64,000 nucleotides of DNA from an uncultured Chloroflexia bacterium (GTDB lineage Bacteria; Chloroflexota; Dehalococcoidia; UBA2979), in NCBI GenBank assembly GCA_963728205.1, contig CAVSIV010000006.1, forward strand, positions 1,184,001 through 1,248,000. The letters run 5' to 3'. The translations under genes were made by a program, and so were the position numbers. Numbering within the stretch: the first letter of the stretch is position 1; each line of letters begins with the position of its first letter. The notes beneath the pieces are model-generated. The model had not been told where the DNA came from. It did no database searches and saw only the letters and a list, made by a program, of their open reading frames with translations. Positions 4,778 through 52,983 of this stretch are shown here, in pieces.

Positions 4778-5604
4778 GTCCGCGCCGCGAGCCCGGCGGG
4801 CGTCTCCAGCCGGGACCGACCGGTCGCGAGGACCGCGCACCGTCGCCGGCGCGCCGCCCGCCGACGCGCGCGCAGCTCGACGCCGTCTACCGTGCGCTGC
4901 TGTCGGCGTACGGCGAGCAGCAGTGGTGGCCCACCGCGAGCGACGACGACGAGACGCAGCGGCTGGAGATCTGCCTCGGCGCGATCCTCACGCAAAACAC
5001 CTCGTGGCGCGGCGCTGCCGCCGCGCTCGAGCGGCTGCACGCTGCGAACGCCGTCTCCTGCGGCGCGCTGCTCGACCTGCCGCCCGACGTGCTCGGCGAC
5101 CTGGTGCGCCCGTCCGGTCACTTCCGCGTGAAGGCACGCAAGCTCCAGGAGTTCTCGCGCGTCGTGGTCGAGGAGCACGGCGGCTCCGTGGACGCGCTGC
5201 TCGACGCCGGCCCCGACGGCGACGTGGACGCCGTCCGCGCGCGTTTGCTCGACATCTGGGGCGTGGGACCGGAGACCGCCGACGCGATCACGCTCTACGC
5301 CGCGCGCCTGCCGACGTTCGTCGTCGATGCGTATTCGTACCGCCTCTTCGAGCGGCTCGACCTCGCGCCGGGTGAACGCAGGTACGACGTCTACCGCGAG
5401 TTCCTGCTCGACCGCATCGGGCCGGACGTGTGGCGGCTCAACGAGTGGCACGCGCTGATCGTCCGGCACGGCCAGCACACCTGTCGACGGTCGGAGCCGC
5501 GCTGCGACGAGTGCGTGCTGCTCGCGCGCTGCCCGTTCGGCCGGCGTGAGACCGGGCTGCCGGCGCGCGGCGCGCGAGCGGCCGCCGGTGGGCGCCCGGC
5601 ATGA
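4774..5604 (+). CDS. Endonuclease III-like HhH-GPD protein with 4Fe-4S motif
   Basis: WWP, GAILTQNTSW, GVGPETADAI, FVVDAY, C-x6-C-x2-C-x5-C (CRRSEPRCDECVLLARC). Confidence 0.9.
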   Translation: MSPRREPGGRLQPGPTGREDRAPSPARRPPTRAQLDAVYRALLSAYGEQQWWPTASDDDETQRLEICLGAILTQNTSWRGAAAALERLHAANAVSCGALLDLPPDVLGDLVRPSGHFRVKARKLQEFSRVVVEEHGGSVDALLDAGPDGDVDAVRARLLDIWGVGPETADAITLYAARLPTFVVDAYSYRLFERLDLAPGERRYDVYREFLLDRIGPDVWRLNEWHALIVRHGQHTCRRSEPRCDECVLLARCPFGRRETGLPARGARAAAGGRPA

Positions 5605-15391: not shown

Positions 15392-15420
15392 TTGACAGCA
15401 ACCGGGGCCGAATCTAGGTT
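15392..15420 (+). promoter_or_regulatory. Sigma70-type promoter of the riboswitch-led operon
   Basis: TTGACA-N17-TAGGTT. Confidence 0.65.
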
Positions 15421-15451
15421 CTGATCGACGTCCTTCCTCCGCGGAGGGACG

Positions 15452-15569
15452 GTTCATCAAGAGCGGTGGAGGGCTCGGCCCTGGGAAACCGCGGCAACCG
15501 GTCACCTTTCGCCGGGGTGAACACGGTGCCAACTCCGACCCTTCCCACAGGGGGAAGGGGCAGATGAAC
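15452..15569 (+). ncRNA. SAM-I (S-box) riboswitch
   Basis: P1 GTTCATC/GATGAAC; ATCAAGAG, GGTGGAGGG..GGCCC..GAAACC, GGCAACC, GGTGCCAACTCC match the S-box core; located upstream of sulfur amino-acid genes. Confidence 0.93.
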
Positions 15570-15752
15570 GGAAGGCGCCACGCGCATGCATCGCACCCCT
15601 CCTCCGCTCACACCTCCTGCCACGCCGCGGCACGTGATGGCGATGCGCTAGCCCGAACACCGTCCTTCCCGCGAAGGACGCGTGTCTCGGGCGCCTCCCT
15701 CCGCTCCACCGCCCCGGGGGCCTCTGCCTCGGTCAGTCGAGGAATGACACCA

Positions 15753-17012
15753 ATGGCGTTCGATCGTGCCCTGCGCTGCAGGGAGTGCGGGCGTGAATAC
15801 CCGCTCAACCCCATCTTCTCGTGCGAGTTCTGCTTCGGCCCGCTCGAGGTCGCATACGACTACGACGGCATTCGCGAGTCGAGCACCCGCGACGCCATCG
15901 AGCGCGGCCCGAGCACGCTCTGGCGCTACGCCGACTTCCTCCCGTGCGACCCGAGCTACAAGATCGACATCGGGACCGGCTACACGCCGCTGCTCCGCGC
16001 CGACCGCCTCGCGAAGGCGATCGGGCTCGACACGCTGTGGCTGAAGAACGACACCGTGAACCCCTCGTGGTCGTTCAAGGACCGCGTCGTCAGTGTCGCG
16101 ATCGCGCGGGCGCGCCAGTTCGGCTTCGAGGCCATGGCGTGCGCCAGCACCGGCAATCTCGCGAACTCCGTCGCGGCCCACTCGGCCGCGGCCGGCATGG
16201 ACTGCTTCGTCTTCATCCCCAACGACCTGGAGCAGGGCAAGGTGGTCGGCAGCGCGATCTACCGGCCGACGCTGGTGATGGTCGAGGGCTCGTACGACGA
16301 CGTGAACCGGCTCTGCACCGAGCTGTCGATGCAGTACCCGTGGGCGTTCGTGAACATCAACGTGCGCCCCTACTACGCCGAGGGCTCCCGCACGCTGGGC
16401 TTCGAGGTCGCCGAGCAGCTCGGCTGGCGCACGCCGGATCACGTGGTCGCGCCGATGGCGTCGGGTTCGCTCTACACGAAGATCTGGAAGGGCTTCCAGG
16501 AGTTCCACAAGGTCGGGCTGATCGCCGAGCCGAAGACGCGCATGTCCGGTGCGCAGGCGACCGGCTGCTCGCCGATCGCGACCGCCTACGAGGGCGGCAC
16601 GCTGAACTTCGTCCCGCAGAAGCCGCACACGATCGCGCGCTCGCTGGCCATCGGGAACCCGGCCGACGGCTACTATGCCCTGAAGCAGATGCAGGAGACC
16701 GGCGGCGGTGCCGCGATGGCGACCGACGACGAGATCGTTGACGGCATCAAGCTGCTGGCGGAGACCGAGGGCGTCTTCGCCGAGACCGCGGGCGGCGTGA
16801 CGATCGCCTGCCTGAAGAAGCTCGTCGCGTCCGGCTTCATCCGGCGCGACGAGGAGACGGTCGCGTTCATCACGGGCGCCGGTCTGAAGACGATCGAGGC
16901 GGTGGTCGACCGCGTCGAGGAGCCGCTCCGGGTCCCGGCGAACACCGAGCGCTTCGCGGAGGCGCTCGCCGCCCGCCGCGGCGGCGCGCCCGTGGCCGCG
17001 ACGGCCGGATAG
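15753..17012 (+). CDS. Threonine-synthase-family PLP enzyme (ThrC-like; possibly O-phosphohomoserine sulfhydrylase)
   Basis: N-terminal CxxC..CxxC, GYTPL, NPSWSFKDR, CASTGNLA, NVRPYYAEG, GVFAETAGG, ITGAGLK. Confidence 0.85.
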   Translation: MAFDRALRCRECGREYPLNPIFSCEFCFGPLEVAYDYDGIRESSTRDAIERGPSTLWRYADFLPCDPSYKIDIGTGYTPLLRADRLAKAIGLDTLWLKNDTVNPSWSFKDRVVSVAIARARQFGFEAMACASTGNLANSVAAHSAAAGMDCFVFIPNDLEQGKVVGSAIYRPTLVMVEGSYDDVNRLCTELSMQYPWAFVNINVRPYYAEGSRTLGFEVAEQLGWRTPDHVVAPMASGSLYTKIWKGFQEFHKVGLIAEPKTRMSGAQATGCSPIATAYEGGTLNFVPQKPHTIARSLAIGNPADGYYALKQMQETGGGAAMATDDEIVDGIKLLAETEGVFAETAGGVTIACLKKLVASGFIRRDEETVAFITGAGLKTIEAVVDRVEEPLRVPANTERFAEALAARRGGAPVAATAG

Positions 17013-17022
17013 GAGGCGCGAG

Positions 17023-17268
17023 ATGGCAGCGAAGCACGTCCGGCTCACGTTCAGCCCGGAGCTGATCAAGGAGCCGCTGATCTACCAGGTGGGCCACCAG
17101 TTCGCGGTGGTGACGAACGTCCGCATGGCCGACGTCGACAAGGACGTCGGCTGGGTGGTGCTGGAGCTCGAGGGCGACGACGCCGAGATCGTGCGCGCGC
17201 TCGACTGGTTCCGCTCGAAGGGCGTGCGCATCGACGAGGCGACGCTCGGCGACGTGGTCGAGGGCTGA
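17023..17268 (+). CDS. Stand-alone NIL domain protein
   Basis: LTFSPELIKEPLIY...VTNVRMADV...GWVVLELEG...GVRI pattern; AGGAGG RBS. Confidence 0.85.
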   Translation: MAAKHVRLTFSPELIKEPLIYQVGHQFAVVTNVRMADVDKDVGWVVLELEGDDAEIVRALDWFRSKGVRIDEATLGDVVEG

Positions 17269-17317
17269 GCCGCGCGCGGCGCGAAGACGAAGCACGGAAC
17301 GGACAACGGAGCAGACG

Positions 17318-17593
17318 ATGGCCGTCAAGGTAAAGATCCCCACCCCGCTGCGGTCGCTGACCAACAACCAGGACCTGGTCTCGACCGAGGGCTCCACTGT
17401 GAGCGACGTCGTGCAGGCGCTCGAGGGAAGCTTCCCCGGCATGCGCGAGCGCATCCTCGACGACGGCGGGGAGATTCGCCGCTTCGTGAACGTCTACGTG
17501 AACGGCGAGGACGTGCGGTTCCTGCAGGGGCTGCAGACGTCGCTCAACGCCGGCGACGAGATCTCGATCGTCCCGGCGGTCGCGGGAGGCTAA
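17318..17593 (+). CDS. MoaD/ThiS family ubiquitin-like sulfur carrier, free C-terminal GG
   Basis: VKIPTPLR, RFVNVYVNGEDVRF, SIVPAVAGG-stop. Confidence 0.93.
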   Translation: MAVKVKIPTPLRSLTNNQDLVSTEGSTVSDVVQALEGSFPGMRERILDDGGEIRRFVNVYVNGEDVRFLQGLQTSLNAGDEISIVPAVAGG

Positions 17594-17652
17594 TCTCCGC
17601 GACCGGTGCAGCTCGAACGGCGACCCTCGCCACGAGCCCCGCGCGCCTTGCG

Positions 17653-17683
17653 TGTTACAATCTCGACTAGATTAGTCGTGAAT
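17653..17683 (+). promoter_or_regulatory. Extended -10 and palindromic operator (probable Rrf2 autoregulatory site)
   Basis: TG-T-TACAAT (17653-17661) followed by CGACTA-GAT-TAGTCG (17664-17678). Confidence 0.6.
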
Positions 17684-17697
17684 AGGAACCGCACGGG

Positions 17698-18138
17698 ATG
17701 CTGCTCAGCACCAAGGGCGACTACGGCGTTCGCGCGCTGATCGATCTCGCGAAGCACGCGGGCGAGGGCCCCGTGCAGCGGTCGGACATCGCCCGACGCC
17801 GCCAGCTCCCCGAGTCGTACCTCGATCACCTCCTCGCACAGTTGCGCCGCGACGGCTTCATCCGCAGCACCCGCGGTCCCGGCGGCGGCCACGAGCTCGC
17901 GCGCCCGGCCGAGGAGATCACGCTCCTCGAGGTGCTCGAGTGCCTCGAGGGCTCGCTCGCGCCGATGAGCTGCGTCGACGAGGCGAACCGCGGCGGCGAG
18001 TCGCTCTGCGGCCAGTCCTGGGTGTGGGAAGAGATCTACGACGAGATGCGTCGCCGGCTCGCCGCGATCACCCTCGCGGACCTCGTCGAGCATGAGCGGC
18101 AGCACGAGCGCGAAGCGGTCATCAACTACAGCATCTGA
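17698..18138 (+). CDS. Rrf2 family regulator, CymR-like
   Basis: STKGDYGVRAL, YLDHLL, STRGPGGG, ITLLEVL; C-terminus INYSI; adjacent to cysK. Confidence 0.9.
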   Translation: MLLSTKGDYGVRALIDLAKHAGEGPVQRSDIARRRQLPESYLDHLLAQLRRDGFIRSTRGPGGGHELARPAEEITLLEVLECLEGSLAPMSCVDEANRGGESLCGQSWVWEEIYDEMRRRLAAITLADLVEHERQHEREAVINYSI

Positions 18139-18190
18139 GCCGTCGCCGGCGCCCCGCGCCAGCCGACCGGAGAGCGAGACGCGTCCACCG

Positions 18191-19159
18191 ATGACGCCCG
18201 AAGCACAGGTCACCCCCGGGATCACCGGCTCCGCGGCCGCGGCCGCCGGGACCGTCATCGCGGACTCCGTGCTCGAGCTGATCGGGCACACGCCGCTCGT
18301 GCGGCTGCGCCGCGTCGTACCGGACGACGTCGCCGAGGTGCTCGGCAAGTACGAGATCTTCAATCCCGGTGGCTCGGTGAAGGACCGCATCGCGCTGGCG
18401 ATGGTCGAGGCGGCGGAGCGCACCGGCGCGCTCGCCCCCGGCGCCACGATCGTGGAGCCGACGTCCGGGAACACCGGCATCGGCCTCGCGATGGTGTGCG
18501 CGACCAAGGGCTACCACCTGGTGCTCACGATGCCCGAGGACATGAGCGTGGAGCGCCGCCGGCTGCTCGAGCGGCTCGGCGCGCAGCTCGTGCTGACGCC
18601 GGCCATCGAAGGCATGACCGGCGCGGTGCACCAGGCGATGGAGCTCGTGACGCAGCATGGCTACTTCATGCCGCAGCAGTTCGACAACCCGGCCAACCCG
18701 GGGATCCACCGCGCGACCACGGGGCCCGAGATCCTCGAGGCGACGGGCGGCGCGGTCGACGCGTTCGTCGCCGGGGTGGGCACGGGCGGCACGATCACCG
18801 GCGCGGGTGGCGCGCTACGCGCGGCGATCCCGGGCGTGCTGATCGTGGCGGTGGAGCCGGCGCGCGCGCCGGTGCTGCAGGGCGGCCGGGCCGGCCTGCA
18901 CGGCATCCAGGGGATCGGCGCGTCGTTCGTGCCGGGCGTCCTGGACCGCGAGATCTACGACGAGGTGATCGGTGTCCAGGACGAGGACGCGTACGCGATG
19001 ACGAAGCGGCTCGCCCGTGAAGAAGGCATGCTGGCCGGCGTCTCGTCCGGCGCCAACGTGTGGGCGTCCCTCCAGGTCGCCCGCCGGCTCGGCCCCGGCA
19101 AGCGGGTCGTGACCATGTTGCCCGATACCGGGGAGCGCTACCTGAGCGTGGCCCTGTAG
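18191..19159 (+). CDS. cysK: Cysteine synthase A
   Basis: NPGGSVKDR, EPTSGNTGIG, QQFDNPAN, GVGTGGT, HGIQGIG, PDTGERYLS. Confidence 0.93.
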   Translation: MTPEAQVTPGITGSAAAAAGTVIADSVLELIGHTPLVRLRRVVPDDVAEVLGKYEIFNPGGSVKDRIALAMVEAAERTGALAPGATIVEPTSGNTGIGLAMVCATKGYHLVLTMPEDMSVERRRLLERLGAQLVLTPAIEGMTGAVHQAMELVTQHGYFMPQQFDNPANPGIHRATTGPEILEATGGAVDAFVAGVGTGGTITGAGGALRAAIPGVLIVAVEPARAPVLQGGRAGLHGIQGIGASFVPGVLDREIYDEVIGVQDEDAYAMTKRLAREEGMLAGVSSGANVWASLQVARRLGPGKRVVTMLPDTGERYLSVAL

Positions 19160-19279
19160 GCCGCGCGGCCCGCCCCGCGCGCACGCGGGGTCGGCTGCGC
19201 GCAGACTGTACGTACAGATCGTAAGCGCGATCCGCGGGATGCTCGCGGGCCGCGAGGCAAGGAACGAGAGGATCGCCCC

Positions 19280-20428
19280 ATGCCGATCAGCGTCTACATC
19301 CCGTCGCCGTTCCGGCGGCTGACGGCCAACCGCGAGTACGTCTCGGTGGAGGGCCACAGCGTCGCAGAGGTGCTCGACGCGCTCGACACGCAGTACCCGG
19401 GCTTCGCGAACCTCGTCTACGACCGCGAACGCAAGGTGCCGTCGCACATCAACATCTACCTGAACAACCAGGAAATCCACGACCTGCAGGGCACCGACAC
19501 CTCCGTCGCCGACGGGGATCAGATCGCGGTGATCCCCGCCCTCGCCGGCGGCGCGGACGGCGGCGCCTCGGGTCCGACTGCGCCGGCGCCGGCGTCGACC
19601 GCGCTCACGCCGGAGGAGGTGATGCGCTACTCGCGGCACATCATCATGCCGCAGGTCGGCCCGCAGGGTCAGCGCAAGCTGCGCAACGCGAAGGTGCTCG
19701 TCATCGGCGCCGGCGGGCTCGGCGGCCCCGTCGCGCTCTACCTCGCGCTCGCGGGCGTCGGCACGATCGGCATCGTCGAGTTCGACGTCGTCGACCTCTC
19801 CAACCTGCAGCGGCAGATCCTCCACCAGACCGCCGACATCGGCCGCCCGAAGATCCAGTCGGCGAAGGACAAGCTGCAGGCCTACAACCCGCACGTGAAC
19901 GTGATCGAGCACACGATGCCGATCACCTCCGACAACGCGATGGACATCATCCCGAACTACGACATCGTGGTGAACGGCGCCGACAACTTCGCGACGCGCT
20001 ACCTCGTGAACGACGCCGCCTACCTCGCCGGCAAGACGCTCGTCGACGGCGCCATCCTGCTGTTCGACGGGCAGGCGACGGTCTACAAGCCGGGCCAGGG
20101 CTGCTACCGCTGCCTCTACCCGGATCCGCCCCCGCCGGGGCTGGTGCCCTCGTGCGCCGAGGCCGGCGTGCTCGGCGCGATCACCGGCATCGTCGGGTCG
20201 ATCCAGGCGACCGAGGTCTTCAAGCAGATCCTTGGCGTCGGCGAGCCGCTGGTGAATCGGCTCCTTCTGATCGACGCGCTCAGCATGGAGTTCCGCACCA
20301 TGAAGATCCGCCGCGATCCGAAGTGCCCGCTCTGCGGCGACGAGCCGACGGTGACGGAGCTCATCGACTACGACGCGTTCTGCGGCTCGCCTCCGCTAGA
20401 GGTGCCGGTCGCGGCCGCGGAGGCCTGA
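19280..20428 (+). CDS. moeB: Ubiquitin-like (MoaD/ThiS) domain fused to MoeB/ThiF adenylyltransferase
   Basis: N-terminal about 91 aa Ubl ending IPALAGG, Pro/Ala linker, then RYSRH, GAGGLG, SNLQRQ, CYRC, SCAEAGV, CPLC. No rhodanese tail. Confidence 0.92.
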   Translation: MPISVYIPSPFRRLTANREYVSVEGHSVAEVLDALDTQYPGFANLVYDRERKVPSHINIYLNNQEIHDLQGTDTSVADGDQIAVIPALAGGADGGASGPTAPAPASTALTPEEVMRYSRHIIMPQVGPQGQRKLRNAKVLVIGAGGLGGPVALYLALAGVGTIGIVEFDVVDLSNLQRQILHQTADIGRPKIQSAKDKLQAYNPHVNVIEHTMPITSDNAMDIIPNYDIVVNGADNFATRYLVNDAAYLAGKTLVDGAILLFDGQATVYKPGQGCYRCLYPDPPPPGLVPSCAEAGVLGAITGIVGSIQATEVFKQILGVGEPLVNRLLLIDALSMEFRTMKIRRDPKCPLCGDEPTVTELIDYDAFCGSPPLEVPVAAAEA

Positions 20429-20503
20429 TCGCGGAGCCGAAGGGGCGGGGAGCGGCGGGGACGTGCACGGCACACCCGACCGCGTGACGGGAGAGGACGC
20501 TCG

Positions 20504-20785
20504 ATGACGGTGAAGGTGCACGTCACCTCGGTCATTCAGAAGGTGGTCGATGGCCAGCGCGAGTTCGACGGCGACGGCGCGACGGTCGGCGAGCTGATCA
20601 CGAACATCGATCAGCGTTACCCCGGCTTCGCCAAGCAGCTGCTGGATGGCGAGGGCAAGCTGCACCGCTTCGTGAACGTCTACCTCAACGACGAGGACGT
20701 GCGGTACCTGGGTGGCCAGGACACGCCGCTGTCGGACGGCGATCACGTGTCGATCCTGCCCGCGCTCGCGGGCGGGTCGCGCTAG
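20504..20785 (+). CDS. MoaD/ThiS (CysO-like) sulfur carrier with GG-SR extension
   Basis: RFVNVYLNDEDVRY, ILPALAGGSR-stop; directly upstream of the CysM-type gene. Confidence 0.92.
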   Translation: MTVKVHVTSVIQKVVDGQREFDGDGATVGELITNIDQRYPGFAKQLLDGEGKLHRFVNVYLNDEDVRYLGGQDTPLSDGDHVSILPALAGGSR

Positions 20786-20802
20786 GAACCGGCGGGCGCC
20801 CC

Positions 20803-21738
20803 ATGCGGTACGCCAGCGTGCTCGAGATGGTCGGGCACACCCCGCTCGTCGAGATCTCGCAGCTCTCGCCGAACCCCAGCGTCCAGATCTTCGCGAAGCT
20901 CGAGGGGCAGAACCCCACCGGCTCGGTCAAGGACCGCATCGCGAAGTTCATGATCGAGGCGGCCGAGGCGCGCGGCGAGCTCAAGCCCGGGCAGGTGATC
21001 TGCGAGCCAACGTCGGGCAACACCGGCATCGGCCTCGCGCTGATCGCGAGCCTGCGCGGCTACCCGATGAAGGTGGTCATGCCCGACGCCGTGAGCGCCG
21101 AGCGCACCGAGCTGCTGCGCGCGTACGGCGCCGAGATCATCTACTCGCCGGGAGACCTCGGCACGAATGGCTCCGTCGCGAAGGCGAAGGAGCTGCGCGC
21201 CGAGCACCCGGACTGGTTCTTCCCGTTCCAGTACGAGAACGCCGAGAACCCGCGCGCGCACTACGAGACCACGGGCCCCGAGATCATCGAGGACCTGCCG
21301 GACGTCACGGCGTTCGTCGCGGGGCTCGGCACCGGCGGGACGCTCACGGGCGTCGGCCGGCGGCTGAAGGAATACAACCCGGCGATCCGCGTGATCGCGG
21401 CGGCGCCCCACCCCGGCGACATGGTGCAGGGGCTGCGCTCGATGGAGGAGGGCTACATCCCGCCCGTCTTCGACGACTCCATTCTCGACGGCCGCATCGT
21501 GGTCGATTCCGCGACATCGTTCGCGATGACCAAGGAGCTCACGCAGCGCACCGGCATCTTCGCCGGCATCTCGAGCGGCGCGGCGGTGCGCGCGGCGCAG
21601 CGCGCCGCCGAGCGGGTGGCGCAGGGCAAGATCGTCTGCCTGCTTGCGGACGGCGGCTGGAAATACCTGTCGACCGGGCTGTGGAGCCGCGACTACCAGG
21701 ACATCACGGAGGACGTGAAAGAGAAGCTGTGGTGGTGA
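20803..21738 (+). CDS. cysM: CysM-type (sulfur-carrier-dependent) cysteine synthase
   Basis: NPTGSVKDR, GLGTGGTLTG, GIFAGISSGA, ADGGWKYLSTG and C-terminal LWW resemble actinobacterial CysM. Confidence 0.85.
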   Translation: MRYASVLEMVGHTPLVEISQLSPNPSVQIFAKLEGQNPTGSVKDRIAKFMIEAAEARGELKPGQVICEPTSGNTGIGLALIASLRGYPMKVVMPDAVSAERTELLRAYGAEIIYSPGDLGTNGSVAKAKELRAEHPDWFFPFQYENAENPRAHYETTGPEIIEDLPDVTAFVAGLGTGGTLTGVGRRLKEYNPAIRVIAAAPHPGDMVQGLRSMEEGYIPPVFDDSILDGRIVVDSATSFAMTKELTQRTGIFAGISSGAAVRAAQRAAERVAQGKIVCLLADGGWKYLSTGLWSRDYQDITEDVKEKLWW

Positions 21739-21757
21739 GCGGCGCGCCCGCGCGCGC

Positions 21758-22045
21758 TCAGGCGACGCCGCGCTGGCGGAGCGTGCCCTCGGACGCGCGG
21801 CGGTCGCCCTCGCGCATCGGAGCGACCTCGCACACCTCGCAGGGGTCCTGCAGCTTGTGGCGCAGGATCGCGGCGATGCGCTCGCCGCAGCGGCGGCACA
21901 TGTACGCGGAGATCACGCCGGCCGGACCGGCGGCGAAGCGGTTGAACTCGCTCGGCCCGCTCACGACGGCGCCCGGCATCAGCGTCAGCTCGAAGCCCTC
22001 GTGTTCGATCGGCTTGCGGCAGGTGTCGCACAGCAACGCGAGCAT
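21758..22045 (-). CDS. Small hypothetical protein with three CxxC motifs
   Basis: CDTC, CRRC, CEVC; GGAGG RBS; fills the gap between cysM and the rhodanese. Confidence 0.7.
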   Translation of the reverse strand: MLALLCDTCRKPIEHEGFELTLMPGAVVSGPSEFNRFAAGPAGVISAYMCRRCGERIAAILRHKLQDPCEVCEVAPMREGDRRASEGTLRQRGVA

Positions 22046-22166
22046 GGGTGCCTCCCGGGGCGAGCACGGCCGATCCGCGCAGCGCTCCCGCTGAGATCAT
22101 CGGCGGGACCCGCGCGTCCCCACAGGCCCGACCGCGTCGCGCAGGGCCCGCGACGAGGAGGAGACG

Positions 22167-23045
22167 ATGGTCGACGCGAGGAGCGATCCGGGCGAGCGCT
22201 CCGCGGTGCCGCGGGTGGTGAGCTGCGACTGGGCGGCGGAGCACCTGGGGGACTCGGGCGTGCGGTTCGTCGAGGTCGACGTCGACACCGAGGCATACGG
22301 CGAGGGACACATCGAGGGTGCGGTCGCCTGGAACTGGACGACGCAGCTGCAGGATCCGCGGCGGCGCGACATCCTCGGCCCCGACGCGTTCGCGGAGTTG
22401 ATGGGGCGCTCCGGCATCACGCGCGACACGCACGTCGTCCTCTACGGCGATAACAACAACTGGTTCGCCGCCTTCGGGCTCTGGCTGCTCGAGCTGTACG
22501 GCCATGAGCGGGCGTCGCTGATGGACGGCGGCCGCGTGAAATGGCTGGGCGACGACCGCCCCACGACGTCGACCGTCCCCGCGGTCGAGGCGGTCGAGTA
22601 CGGCACCCCGACCCTCGACCCGGCGCAGCGTGCACGACGCGACGACGTGCTGGCCGCGCTCACGGCCGGGGGCGCGCAGCTGATCGACGTGCGCAGCCCC
22701 GCGGAGTTCTCGGGCGAGGTGATCGCGCCGCCGGGGATGACTGAGACCGCGCAGCGCGGCGGGCACATTCCCGGCGCGCTCAACGTGCCCTGGGCGCGGG
22801 CCGTGAACGAGGACGGGACGTTCAAGACGCCCGCCGAGCTGCGGCAGCTCTATGGCGCCGCCGGGCTGCGCGACGGCGGCGACGAGACGATCGTGTACTG
22901 CCGGATCGGGGAGCGCTCGGCGCATACGTGGTTCGTGCTGCGGCACCTGCTCGGCCTCCCCCGCGTGAAGAACTACGACGGGTCCTGGACCGAGTACGGG
23001 TCGCTGATCGGCGTGCCGATCGAGCGCGAGCACGAGGAGGGGTGA
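22167..23045 (+). CDS. Two-domain rhodanese sulfurtransferase (CysA/SseA type)
   Basis: GHIEGAV, YGDNNNWFAA, DVRSPAEFSG, GGHIPGA, active-site YCRIGERS, NYDGSWTEYG. Confidence 0.93.
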   Translation: MVDARSDPGERSAVPRVVSCDWAAEHLGDSGVRFVEVDVDTEAYGEGHIEGAVAWNWTTQLQDPRRRDILGPDAFAELMGRSGITRDTHVVLYGDNNNWFAAFGLWLLELYGHERASLMDGGRVKWLGDDRPTTSTVPAVEAVEYGTPTLDPAQRARRDDVLAALTAGGAQLIDVRSPAEFSGEVIAPPGMTETAQRGGHIPGALNVPWARAVNEDGTFKTPAELRQLYGAAGLRDGGDETIVYCRIGERSAHTWFVLRHLLGLPRVKNYDGSWTEYGSLIGVPIEREHEEG

Positions 23046-23046
23046 C

Positions 23047-23442
23047 ATGGCGTCGAGCGTCGGCGTCCTCGAGCAGGCCGTTTTGCGGCGCGCGCTGGCG
23101 GCGCGCGACGCGGCCCGGCTGCCGCTGCGCTTCCACGCAGCGGTGGTCGACCGCTACCGCGAGCATGCGAGCGCGCAGCTGCTGCGCACGCGCACCGTCG
23201 GCCGCATCGCGATCCCGGGGCGGTGGACGCTCGACCTCGGCATCGTCGACGGGGACGCCGCGCCGAAGACCGGACCGGAGGTCCACCTCCCGTTCCAGGA
23301 CTTCGTCGACCGCCTGCCCGAGGCAGAGTGGCCGCACTGGATCGAGCACCTGGTGGAGGTGCCGGCGAGCGCGAACTTCCTGCAGATGCGGATGACGCCC
23401 GGCGCCTGCATCGACGACGGCGAGACGCACGACTGGGAGTGA
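23047..23442 (+). CDS. Hypothetical protein (131 aa) within the sulfur cluster
   Basis: Starts 1 nt after the rhodanese stop, GGAGG RBS; no family recognised. Confidence 0.75.
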   Translation: MASSVGVLEQAVLRRALAARDAARLPLRFHAAVVDRYREHASAQLLRTRTVGRIAIPGRWTLDLGIVDGDAAPKTGPEVHLPFQDFVDRLPEAEWPHWIEHLVEVPASANFLQMRMTPGACIDDGETHDWE

Positions 23443-23507
23443 CGCCGCGGCGGGCCGGCGGGCCTCCGCGGATCGAGTGCCCGAGTGTCCGAACGATGGA
23501 GGACCGC

Positions 23508-23945
23508 ATGCCCCGCATTCCGCGCGCGATCGTCGACGCCATGATCGCGCACGCTCGCGAGGACCTGCCCAACGAGGCCTGCGGCATGGTGCACGCCCGC
23601 GACGGCGTGCCCATCGCCGTGCATCGCGTGCAGAACGCGGCGGCGAGCCCGTACCGCTACGAGATGAACCCGCTGCAGATGATGCGGCTGGAGAACCAGC
23701 GCGACGAGACGGGCGAGACGCTGTTTGCGATCTACCACTCGCACGTCGCTTCCGAAGCACGCCCGTCGCCGACCGACGTGCGCATGGCGTTCTTCCCGCC
23801 CGGCGAGACCGACCGGGAGCCGATGTACCCGCAGACCTACTACATCCTCGTGTCGCTCGCCCAGGAGCCGCCCGACGTCCGCGCGTTCTTCATCCGGCAG
23901 GGCGGCGTGATCGACGAGGAGTCGGTGGAGGTCGTGGCGGGCTGA
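23508..23945 (+). CDS. JAMM/Mov34 (M67) metallopeptidase, Mec-like
   Basis: PNEACG and IYHSHVASEARPSPTD (E...HxH-x7-S-x2-D). Confidence 0.93.
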   Translation: MPRIPRAIVDAMIAHAREDLPNEACGMVHARDGVPIAVHRVQNAAASPYRYEMNPLQMMRLENQRDETGETLFAIYHSHVASEARPSPTDVRMAFFPPGETDREPMYPQTYYILVSLAQEPPDVRAFFIRQGGVIDEESVEVVAG

Positions 23946-52269: not shown

Positions 52270-52983
52270 TCACCGGCGGAGGGGCTTCGGCTGCACGCCT
52301 TCCTGCCAGCGGCTGCCGCCGGGCCCATACTCCTTCTTCCACACCGGCACCGTCTCCTTGATGCGGTCGACCGTGCGCAGCGCCGCCGCGAACGCGTCGC
52401 CGCGGTGCGCGGCGGAGACGGCCACGACGAGCGACGTCTCGCCGACTTCGAGCGGGCCGATGCGGTGGTGTGCGGCGATCGCGTGAACCTCGCGGTCGCG
52501 GAAGTCGGCGAGCACCTCGTCGGCGACCGCGCGCAGCTGACGCTCCGCCATCTCGGCGTACGCCTCGTACTCGAGGCGGAGCACCGCGTGCCCCTCATGG
52601 TGGTTGCGCACGACGCCCTCGAACACGACGGCCGCGCCGCTCGCCGGCGTCATCACGATGTCGCGGAGCGCCTGCGCGCGCAGTTCAGCGGTCGTGACGA
52701 GGAACGGCGGCGTCTCGTTGGGATCCGCGTCCGGCGCGCCACCGGAGATCGGGGGGACGAGCGCGACGGTGTCACCGTCCGACAGCTCGTGCGTGTCCTC
52801 GAGGACGTAGTCCTCGTTTACGGCGATCGCGACGCCGCTGAGGTACGGCTTGAGCTTCGGCTGCGACGCCTCGAGCCGCGCGCGGAGGTCGCCGACGGTG
52901 ACGCGCGGCGCTTCGAACTGCTCCGTGAGGTCGCCGCCGACGACGTCGCGAAGACCGGCGAAGAGACGAATCTGAACCTGCAC
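52270..52983 (-). CDS. Fused molybdopterin synthase MoaD-MoaE (MoaX-like)
   Basis: LFAGLRD..AVNEDY..PPISGG, then GAAVVFEGVVR, LEYEAY, HRIG, SAAHR, PVWKKE. Confidence 0.92.
   Translation of the reverse strand: MQVQIRLFAGLRDVVGGDLTEQFEAPRVTVGDLRARLEASQPKLKPYLSGVAIAVNEDYVLEDTHELSDGDTVALVPPISGGAPDADPNETPPFLVTTAELRAQALRDIVMTPASGAAVVFEGVVRNHHEGHAVLRLEYEAYAEMAERQLRAVADEVLADFRDREVHAIAAHHRIGPLEVGETSLVVAVSAAHRGDAFAAALRTVDRIKETVPVWKKEYGPGGSRWQEGVQPKPLRR

Follow-up and report, generated by a model that had tools for sequence, protein, structure and literature searches.

The stretch of DNA analysed here (the window) comprises 64,000 nucleotides of an uncultured Chloroflexota bacterium (contig CAVSIV010000006.1, positions 1,184,001 to 1,248,000, of the assembly GCA_963728205.1). 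It contains a gene cluster that encodes a putative sulfur relay with ubiquitin-like carrier proteins, named Ubl1 to Ubl3, and the cluster is probably composed of two adjacent transcription units for protein thiocarboxylate-dependent synthesis of sulfur amino acids, which share one activating enzyme (E1). The source assembly has a size of 4.13 Mb in 6 contigs and a G+C content of 72%, and it was rated 89% complete; the nearest database relatives of the window are uncultured Chloroflexota, most of them labelled Dehalococcoidia. The cluster was examined from position 15451 to position 23945 with Pfam, NCBIfam and Rfam searches. It starts with a riboswitch, followed by eleven genes on the plus strand, which encode a paralogue of the threonine synthase ThrC that resembles MetM, a NIL-domain protein, Ubl1, an Rrf2-family regulator, CysK, a fusion of Ubl2 with the E1, Ubl3, CysM, a rhodanese, an orphan protein and a JAMM metallopeptidase. 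An earlier note, made from the sequence alone, had listed these twelve elements, and all of them were found at the places given there, the eleven protein-coding ones also on the strands given. It was likewise right in placing everything on one strand apart from one small inserted gene, an open reading frame (ORF) of 95 amino acids on the minus strand (21758-22045). The start positions of the ThrC-like gene, cysK and the JAMM gene have to be read with some care, as the long ORFs overstate the N-termini of these three proteins. The flanks consist of unrelated housekeeping genes, i.e., lgt and a glutaredoxin-like gene upstream and folP and folK downstream.

For a comparison with other genomes, 80 related loci (near loci) were fetched with the fusion E1 as anchor, all of which were Chloroflexota records. 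The twelve window proteins, including that of the inserted ORF, were located in these loci, and only loci that reached far enough were counted (assessable loci). The order Rrf2-CysK-E1-Ubl3-CysM was found on one strand in 71-78 of 72-79 assessable loci, and its recurrence in nearly all of them places the arrangement far beyond chance. CysK was present next to the E1 gene in all 78 assessable loci and CysM in all 74 (in 71 of them on the same strand), while Rrf2 was found in 71 of 72 and Ubl3 in 77 of 79. The gene-neighbourhood survey that the earlier note had proposed as a check upheld the synteny. The remaining genes were more variable. The JAMM gene was located within 10 kb downstream of the E1 gene in 41 of 63 assessable loci, the rhodanese gene was part of the cluster in 26 of 54, and the orphan gene was present in 19 of 54. 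The genes for the ThrC-like enzyme, the NIL protein and Ubl1 always moved as a block, and 29 of 56 assessable loci had this trio less than 10 kb upstream. Taken together, the locus has a near-universal core, Rrf2-CysK-E1-Ubl3-CysM, which two modules join in the closer relatives of the window. The core unit is also present in the cultured relative Tepidiforma (L064). Two further samples were used, a phylum sample with one locus from each of 39 families and a sample of 400 other genomes of the phylum, in which a full-length match with at least 50% identity was taken as an orthologue. In three loci from other families of the phylum (L102, L105 and L106) the MetM unit was also joined to Rrf2-(CysK)-E1-Ubl-CysM-JAMM, and thus the composite layout is not confined to the closest relatives of the window. 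Two loci, from two other families, have a different E1 directly after MetM-NIL-Ubl, with 35-38% identity to that of the window (L100 near position 5189 and L101 near position 4867, in oriented coordinates).

The enzyme that would connect the two units is encoded at 19280-20428 on the plus strand. The protein of 382 amino acids contains two domains in one open frame, a ThiS-like domain (Ubl2, residues 1-91, ending in AGG; ThiS 48 bits) and, after a linker, a MoeB/ThiF domain (ThiF 275.5 bits). Both domains were present in 120 of 120 proteins among the E1 matches listed. In an alignment of 13 diverse fusions the residues A89-G90-G91, the Gly-rich loop, two CxxC pairs and C292 were invariant, while the linker varied. 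The loop, both CxxC pairs and the conserved cysteine are features of MoeZ; the rhodanese domain of MoeZ is absent, and the MoeZ model yielded 380 bits versus a cut-off of 647. Because this defining domain is missing, the E1 is not a member of the MoeZ family; it may work like MoeZ. No other ThiF-family match in the genome exceeded the cut-off, in accordance with the single E1 of the earlier note. The genome yielded seven matches to the ThiS family, including one in a fusion of MoaD and MoaE with 237 amino acids (52270-52983, minus strand), which is composed of a ThiS-family domain ending in ISGG, a short linker and the sole MoaE match of the genome. As a single ThiF-family gene stands against these seven matches, the E1 very probably also serves molybdopterin synthesis. 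One E1 that serves the carriers for both molybdenum cofactor and cysteine has been described in mycobacteria, according to the accessible text on MoeZR. The earlier note had counted three carriers. All three are indeed in the cluster, and each combines a match to the beta-grasp family with a Gly-Gly motif at its C-terminal end (Ubl1 AGG-stop, Ubl2 AGG-linker, Ubl3 AGG-SR), but the number is too small for the genome, which encodes more, the MoaD-MoaE fusion among them.

Further residues follow the Gly-Gly motif in Ubl2, MoaD and Ubl3, which suggests that these three carriers need to be cut at this site. A comparable case is MoaX of Mycobacterium tuberculosis, a fused MoaD-MoaE that is cut at Gly82 of its GG motif by a protease left unidentified in the accessible part of the report (PMC4326299). 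The fusion in the window, which is known from its sequence only, likewise has a GG motif (ISGG) that is followed by a linker. In addition, JAB peptidases had been predicted to cleave fused carriers, as stated in the accessible text of Iyer et al. (2006; PMC1779556). It is conceivable, though doubtful, that the fused Ubl2 always stays attached and serves the E1 in cis, for regulation or docking, so that Ubl1, Ubl3 and MoaD would be the only carriers. In the same source another role was assigned to ubiquitin-like domains fused to ThiF, on the grounds that stand-alone ThiS co-occurs, and stand-alone carriers are present in the genome studied here, too. However, all 13 diverse fusions share the AGG, while the linker behind it differs in length and sequence from one fusion to the next, as would be expected at a cleavage site. 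In addition, a JAMM peptidase is encoded nearby, and MoaX offers a precedent for cleavage at GG. Release of Ubl2 from the E1 was retained as the preferred reading. As a side observation, no real match to ThiG was found in the genome (23.7 bits, partial) despite its seven ThiS-family matches, and the organism may lack the thiazole branch of thiamine synthesis or use a different type of it.

The first of the two units is led by an S-adenosylmethionine (SAM)-I riboswitch aptamer at 15451-15570 (plus strand), which matched all 108 positions of the four-way-junction model RF00162 with 80.1 bits, well above the curated gathering score of 44.4. It was the sole Rfam match in the 64-kb window and the sole SAM-I match in the genome. 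With a covariance model that was built from eight riboswitch copies, the riboswitch was detected upstream of the MetM-like orthologue in 17 of 25 assessable near loci and just upstream of the MetM-like gene in 21 of the 39 loci of the phylum sample, and Rfam confirmed it in seven of nine loci tested. Downstream of the aptamer lies a mini-ORF on the plus strand (15586-15651), which encodes MHRTPPPLTPPATPRHVMAMR and a stop codon. It ends with V-M-A-M-R-stop, and its Met-x-Met codons are situated just 5′ of a GC-rich hairpin (15651-15692, plus strand), a candidate expression platform that its stop codon abuts. No intrinsic terminator was recognized on the plus strand. The fold of the leader from 15571 to 15700 had a predicted stability of -54 kcal/mol (z -3.05), which was not reached by any of 200 shuffled sequences. 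The base of the hairpin, GCCCG...CGGGC, was retained in nine of nine aligned leaders, and three pairs had changed on both sides. A mini-ORF with at least two Met codons was present in 17 of 38 leaders versus 10.6% of the shuffled sequences, one with at least three Met codons in 13 of 38 versus 1.2%, and in 14 near loci the sequence ATG-NNN-ATG directly preceded the hairpin. The natural reading of these leaders is that mini-ORF and hairpin would form a ribosome-mediated, methionine-sensing attenuator behind the SAM riboswitch. A fold of the whole leader (15440-15770) failed to recover the aptamer and was disregarded.

The earlier note had let the riboswitch lead the entire relay, and this part of its claim did not hold. 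That the whole 8.5 kb form one operon under control of the SAM riboswitch is unlikely, although all genes but one are co-oriented and separated by short gaps, a simple scan of the plus strand revealed no sigma-70 promoter inside the cluster, and Ubl1 and Rrf2 were less than 1.5 kb apart in 14 of the 29 near loci that have the trio. In the other 15 of these the trio was 2.4-7.2 kb away, and in 27 of 56 assessable loci it was not found within 10 kb upstream. The minus-strand ORF interrupts the run, and a stable hairpin (17574-17608, plus strand; -23 kcal/mol, z -2.69) covers the stop codon of Ubl1, a possible end of the riboswitch-led unit. As three of 200 shuffled sequences were equally stable and a U-tract is missing, this hairpin is weak evidence for a unit end. 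A further sign is found 15-38 nucleotides before the Rrf2 start codon, where an AT-rich TACAAT box and the perfect palindrome CGACTA-GAT-TAGTCG (17656-17683, plus strand) stand out in a genome of 72% G+C. Related elements of the type TAnnAT-GTTGAc-N5-TnACTCGAC were recognized by eye upstream of Rrf2 in most of 70 loci. The element is a candidate promoter and operator of the Rrf2 unit. This operator-like element and the mobility of the trio led to the assumption of two units, and most likely the riboswitch controls only the first three genes, while the Rrf2 unit is provided with a conserved operator-like site of its own. When the genome was scanned with an operator-like matrix derived from the sites upstream of Rrf2, the site at Rrf2 scored 46.2. 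Weaker matches were located at C2:181147, C6:287776 and C6:1008711 (26.0, 23.5 and 18.5, respectively); these three sites are without clear target genes, and therefore no regulon is claimed.

The regulator of the second unit (17698-18138, plus strand) matched the Rrf2 family with 131 bits and exceeded the cut-off of the Rrf2 superfamily model (128.1 versus 73.3). Cysteines at the three positions that hold the cluster ligands in Fe-S-binding Rrf2 regulators (IscR/NsrR type) were unevenly conserved, with C92 in 50 of 72, C104 in 65 of 72 and the third one in 3 of 72 sequences. The C-terminus is NYSI in the window protein, and the pattern [Y/W]-x-Ile-stop was found there and in 71 of 71 complete orthologues. 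In CysE and in CdiA toxins a C-terminal isoleucine enters the active site of CysK, and it is a specific hypothesis that the tail of the regulator could dock into the adjacent CysK in an analogous manner. The CysE of the genome (C6:1088763-1089242) itself has a long C-terminal extension that ends with EGSVD, and it does not possess a docking-type C-terminal isoleucine.

Three proteins of the second unit are concerned with cysteine. CysK (18191-19159, plus strand, with the ORF open from 18092) is an O-acetylserine sulfhydrylase A according to the equivalog model TIGR01139 (435.8 bits, cut-off 350.95). Ubl3 (20504-20785, plus strand; ThiS 62.6 bits) is a CysO-like carrier; among solved structures it is closest to M. 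tuberculosis CysO (3dwg_C), with an alignment over the full length and E 8.1e-23. In the window it ends with AGG-SR-stop. Among its orthologues, 33 of 74 ended with GG-stop and 41 of 74 carried a variable, unconserved tail of 1-14 residues, which is the pattern to be expected if a peptidase removes the tail. Ubl3 ends 17 nucleotides upstream of CysM. An in-frame fusion of Ubl3 and CysM, which a tblastn match had suggested for eight relatives, was rejected, because a stop codon follows directly after AGG and the match had run through it. CysM (20803-21738, plus strand) is of the type of the Mycobacterium O-phosphoserine sulfhydrylase. It passed the cut-off of TIGR01136 (347.6 versus 344.15 bits) and stayed below that of the Escherichia coli-type cysM equivalog (304.7 versus 394.2). 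The closest solved relatives were the M. tuberculosis CysM structures 3dwg_A (E 4.8e-87) and 3dki_A (E about 5e-87), the next family followed at 1e-78, and the alignment with 3dwg_A covered residues 2-310 including the C-terminal tail, so that over its full length the predicted protein resembles Mycobacterium CysM more than CysK or the CysM of E. coli. The lysine of NPTGSVKDR and the arginine of GLRSMEEG are identical in Mycobacterium CysM; the former is presumably the lysine that binds pyridoxal phosphate (PLP) and the latter the arginine that binds the phosphate of O-phosphoserine. The CysK of the window differs at the arginine motif (GLHGIQGIG).

The last gene of the cluster (23508-23945, plus strand, alternative start at 23496) encodes a Mec-like metallopeptidase of the JAMM/MPN+ type (Prok-JAB 70 bits). 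The stretch HSHVASEARPSPTD matches HxHx7SxxD, and together with the glutamate it is predicted to form the zinc site of the family; both histidines were present in 40 of 41 sequences. The closest solved relative was 2kks_A (E 6.1e-17). The cluster JAMM is the obvious candidate for the protease that would make the Gly-Gly cuts in fused and tailed carriers. The same set of proteins could instead act mainly in the conjugation of carriers to proteins and their deconjugation, in the style of SAMP, Urm1 or TtuB, with sulfur transfer as a secondary function, but this is quite improbable. It would agree with the E1 score on the model of the SAMP-activating E1 (326 bits), with desampylase as the best NCBIfam match of the JAMM (61.9 bits) and with the lack of a rhodanese domain in the E1, which is also lacking in archaeal UbaA. 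However, the scores of the E1 and the JAMM are both below the respective cut-offs (450 and 130), each free carrier adjoins a PLP enzyme of a family that is known to use carrier thiocarboxylates, and the control by a SAM riboswitch and by a regulator paired with a cysteine-linked enzyme points to sulfur amino acid synthesis.

The enzyme of the methionine arm is encoded at 15753-17012 (plus strand). The protein of 419 amino acids, the start of which was taken from the called protein, has an N-terminal Cys4 zinc ribbon and the PLP fold of the threonine synthase family (PALP 223 bits). It stayed slightly below the cut-off of NF006050 (298.9 versus 303 bits). Within the phylum, its orthologues (at least 50% identity) were well apart from the ThrC paralogues (at most 37%). 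A full-length match with at least 50% identity was present in at least 149 of the 400 sampled genomes; five of the 149 are flagged unpublished, and when all six flagged genomes were left out the count was 144 of 394. The gene has the same neighbourhood as in Streptomyces albulus, i.e., a carrier gene and a SAM riboswitch. A ThiS-family carrier gene followed in 29 of 29 near loci with the trio, and in the phylum sample it was found within 1.5 kb in at least 30 of 39 loci. The genome encodes ThrB (211.7 bits, over the cut-off). Searches of the genome for a Cys/Met gamma-family PLP enzyme (best 34 bits, partial) and for MetX (best 25 bits) found neither, and MetA yielded zero matches; no other homocysteine route is thus visible in this 89%-complete genome. 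These results suggest that the MetM-like gene encodes an O-phosphohomoserine-dependent homocysteine synthase. That it encodes an ordinary or SAM-regulated threonine synthase and that Ubl1 serves another pathway is very improbable, for although it passes the thrC equivalog cut-off (TIGR00260, 270.5 versus 167.1 bits), all database names agree with this label and the solved structures nearest to it are threonine synthases, another gene of the genome scores far higher as ThrC (578 versus 299 bits on NF006050), a third paralogue exists, a shut-off at plentiful SAM fits the synthesis of methionine and not of threonine, the carrier gene and the missing alternative routes speak for homocysteine, and MetM is often misannotated in just this way according to the accessible text of the GapMind authors. 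The third paralogue of the threonine synthase family, which is shorter and 37% identical to the MetM-like protein, is situated at C6:1248197-1249168, about 200 nucleotides past the end of the window.

Between the genes for the MetM-like enzyme and Ubl1 lies a gene for a stand-alone NIL-domain protein of 81 amino acids, which ends with VVEG-stop (17023-17268, plus strand; PF09383 with 54.6 bits, cut-off 24). It is the only NIL domain in the genome. The gene was present at this position in 29 of 29 near loci with the trio and, in either order, in 23 of the 39 phylum-sample loci, and the C-terminus was a glycine directly at the stop codon in 46 of 52 orthologues, mostly as VEG. Homologues carry either the name "NIL domain protein" or one transferred automatically from the NIL-ferredoxin protein that belongs to the DUF39 homocysteine pathway; this pathway likewise requires a NIL protein. 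A literature search for the combination of NIL domain, riboswitch and methionine returned nothing. As judged from its position and conservation, the NIL protein appears as a conserved third partner of the methionine arm. Ubl1 (17318-17593, plus strand) is a MetO-like carrier of the ThiS/MoaD family (ThiS 70.2 bits) that ends with AGG-stop. M. tuberculosis CysO was again the closest solved relative (3dwg_C, E 8.2e-22), and the orthologues ended with GG-stop in 20 of 29 cases and carried 1-7 extra residues in 9 of 29. The two pairs of carrier and PLP enzyme proposed in the earlier note were thus recovered by comparison, Ubl1 with the ThrC paralogue and Ubl3 directly before the putative Mycobacterium-type CysM.

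Two genes lie upstream of the JAMM gene. The first one encodes a rhodanese with two domains (22167-23045, plus strand; Rhodanese 112 bits in two stretches) and the active-site loop CRIGERS, and the active-site Cys245 was present in 24 of 27 sequences. The second one encodes the orphan protein of 131 amino acids (23047-23442, plus strand), for which neither Pfam nor NCBIfam contained a matching family. Its start was -4 to 73 nucleotides past the rhodanese stop codon in 18 of 18 loci, and an alignment of 16 sequences had 26 invariant columns, with conserved H97, H101, C121, DDG and W130. Among 1.84 billion proteins, 94 representatives were related at E≤1e-3. A structure was predicted with a pLDDT of 87.3, and no clear fold relatives were found with Foldseek (best E 0.27) or VIA-align (best Z 4.5). 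DUF3386 was rejected as a relative because the best protein-atlas score of 0.82 was below the usable level. By its conservation the orphan ORF qualifies as a real gene, and the nearly invariant His97, His101 and Cys121 suggest a metal or persulfide site. Ten longer proteins with the orphan domain were compared with Pfam; eight had no match, one matched ABC_tran (P0293) and one a rhodanese (P0292), and these matches were too weak to use. The latter is a representative of 385 amino acids in which a partial rhodanese (28.5 bits) is followed by the orphan domain, as either a fusion or a frameshifted gene call.

The analysis established which genes are present, their order and conservation, the integrity of their motifs and the lack of alternative genes in the genome. 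From this a scheme of two units can be drawn, in which all chemical steps, the substrates, the cleavage steps and the two regulatory mechanisms are inferred. In the first unit, from the riboswitch to Ubl1, a low SAM level would cause the riboswitch to let the unit through, and the leader peptide with its Met codons would probably add a second check. The MetM-like enzyme would take O-phosphohomoserine from ThrB and accept sulfur from the C-terminal thiocarboxylate of Ubl1, resulting in homocysteine. In the second unit, from Rrf2 to the JAMM gene, the E1 would adenylate the GG end of the carriers, and the separate rhodanese would supply persulfide sulfur and thereby replace the rhodanese domain of MoeZ. 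CysM would use Ubl3-thiocarboxylate and O-phosphoserine. The JAMM would trim the SR tail of Ubl3 and release the amino acid from the carrier adduct, and it would probably also free Ubl2 from the E1 and MoaD from MoaE at the GG sites. Rrf2 would regulate its own unit through the palindrome before its gene, and insertion of its [Y/W]-x-Ile tail into CysK would probably let it sense how much cysteine is available.

Several results weigh against this scheme. On the methionine side, 8 of the 25 assessable near loci that have the MetM-like gene lacked a SAM-I match, and one of these, L009, also had nothing above any Rfam gathering score. The eight loci (L009, L011, L012, L013, L014, L016, L017 and L019) may have another control element. 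A U-tract is absent not only at the Ubl1 stop codon, but also after the leader hairpin. Ubl1 exceeded the NCBIfam cut-off for SAMP1 (74.8 versus 60), and thus a role as protein modifier is possible. On the cysteine side, CysE (232 bits), CysK and sulfite reductase are present in the genome, and therefore an ordinary cysteine route is possible and the carrier arm is unneeded on paper. The regulator stayed below the cut-offs of both CymR (107.2 versus 195) and IscR (101 versus 207.55), and by these scores it is not a demonstrable CymR member. Of the control by SAM and a CymR-type regulator that the earlier note had assumed, the SAM control of the methionine arm and an Rrf2 regulator at the cysteine arm were retained, and the assignment to CymR was not. 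Bacillus subtilis CymR works in complex with CysK, and the pairing of an Rrf2-family regulator with CysK is similar in the window; apart from the missed CymR cut-off, the window differs in that the two genes are adjacent. The earlier note had also counted on one rhodanese and one JAMM. Four paralogues of the rhodanese are encoded elsewhere, giving five in all, and in 28 of 54 assessable relatives the rhodanese is not in the cluster. The cluster JAMM is the sole strong Prok-JAB match of the genome, but the claim does not hold strictly, as two marginal ones were found (28 and 25.5 bits), and in 22 of 63 assessable relatives no JAMM gene was present within 10 kb. The orphan gene was absent in 35 of 54. 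Finally, all absences in the genome are provisional, given the completeness of the assembly.

A wider reading can be put forward tentatively, though it is rather unlikely. A single ubiquitin-like hub, with one E1 and at least four carriers, would carry sulfur for homocysteine, for one cysteine route and for molybdopterin. Ubl2, MoaD and Ubl3 would be made as precursors, each of which the JAMM must cut at Gly-Gly, and precursor processing would be a control point, as it is for eukaryotic ubiquitin. An undescribed NIL protein with a C-terminal glycine would act on the MetM step, an undescribed Cys/His protein of 131 amino acids would pass sulfur between rhodanese and E1, and an undescribed Rrf2 repressor would read the cysteine supply with its tail in CysK. 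The methionine arm would be doubly controlled, by the SAM riboswitch and the leader peptide with Met codons.

The core parts of the cluster are each of a known kind, namely MetM/MetO, CysO/CysM/Mec, a MoeZ-like E1 function, CysK and Rrf2. In S. albulus, MetM is reported to turn O-phosphohomoserine into homocysteine with MetO-thiocarboxylate, Mec and MoeZ are reported to help, and metM/metO to be under the control of a SAM riboswitch (Hasebe et al. 2024, Appl Environ Microbiol 90:e01247-24, as cited in later work). By analogy, the pair of ThrC-like enzyme and Ubl1 appears to match this MetM/MetO route of Streptomyces. In a comparison with this description, the likeness consists in a SAM riboswitch in front of a threonine synthase homologue and its neighbouring ThiS/MoaD-type carrier, and in the need for an E1 and a JAMM/Mec-type peptidase. 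The window differs by the NIL gene between enzyme and carrier and by the leader ORF with Met codons after the riboswitch; in addition, the window carrier already ends in GG, and the window E1 is devoid of a rhodanese domain and has an N-terminal carrier domain.

The cysteine arm resembles that of M. tuberculosis, in which cysteine is made from O-phosphoserine and CysO-thiocarboxylate by mec-cysO-cysM (Rv1334-1336) together with MoeZR (Rv3206c). The closest solved relatives of the window CysM and its carrier are from this system, a JAMM gene is in the neighbourhood, and an E1 serves several carriers, as far as the accessible descriptions go. In contrast, the order in the window is cysO-cysM...JAMM with the genes for the rhodanese and the orphan protein in between, the rhodanese is a separate protein with two domains and not an E1 domain, the carrier has an SR tail, and the unit starts with Rrf2 and CysK. 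ClpS and the helical protein, which belong to the actinobacterial operon type in the accessible description, were not seen in the window. In Wolinella succinogenes, a carrier thiocarboxylate feeds homocysteine synthesis by HcyS/HcyF/HcyD/MetY, and a metalloprotease matures or releases the carrier. The PLP enzyme of that pathway is an O-acetylhomoserine sulfhydrylase of the Cys/Met gamma family, in contrast to the genome of the window, in which this family was not found.

A search of the available literature for the combined arrangement in Chloroflexota found no paper on it. The statement of the earlier note that the combined architecture was not known to be characterised in this phylum can stand to that extent, but an operon of this type had been catalogued in 2006. 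Operon type 4c of Iyer, Burroughs and Aravind (2006; PMC1779556) comprises ThiS/MoaD, E1, JAB and cysteine synthase and lists Chloroflexus aurantiacus, and the same four families are clustered in the window. According to the accessible text of that paper, the E1 of type 4c is fused to a rhodanese, which the window E1 is not, and fusions of ubiquitin-like domains with ThiF are mostly found in thiamine operons; the type as described there is without the methionine arm, NIL, Rrf2-CysK and the orphan protein, all of which are found in the window. The cluster is thus a real, conserved and tidy variant of known systems, and its uncharacterised extras are the NIL protein, the leader mini-ORF with Met codons, the [Y/W]-x-Ile tail of Rrf2 and the orphan protein.

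The first description of the MetM/MetO route is as recent as 2024, as far as the accessible literature indicates, and the window orthologue is labelled "threonine synthase" throughout the public data. With this wrong label and an orthologue in more than a third of the sampled genomes, the methionine prototrophy of many uncultured Chloroflexota is likely to be mis-scored. As both thiocarboxylate arms, the shared E1, the sulfur donor and the peptidase are encoded at one site, the cluster also offers a compact set for reconstitution. The NIL protein, the fused carrier, the orphan protein, the Rrf2 tail and the Met leader raise testable questions on how ubiquitin-like sulfur relays are fed, matured and regulated; one question that the cluster addresses, raised in the accessible text on MoaX (PMC4326299), is which protease cuts fused MoaD-MoaE.

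The inserted minus-strand ORF between cysM and the rhodanese gene encodes a protein with several CxxC pairs, for which the only matches were weak ones to zinc ribbons. It was found in 2 of 51 assessable relatives (L002 and L003).

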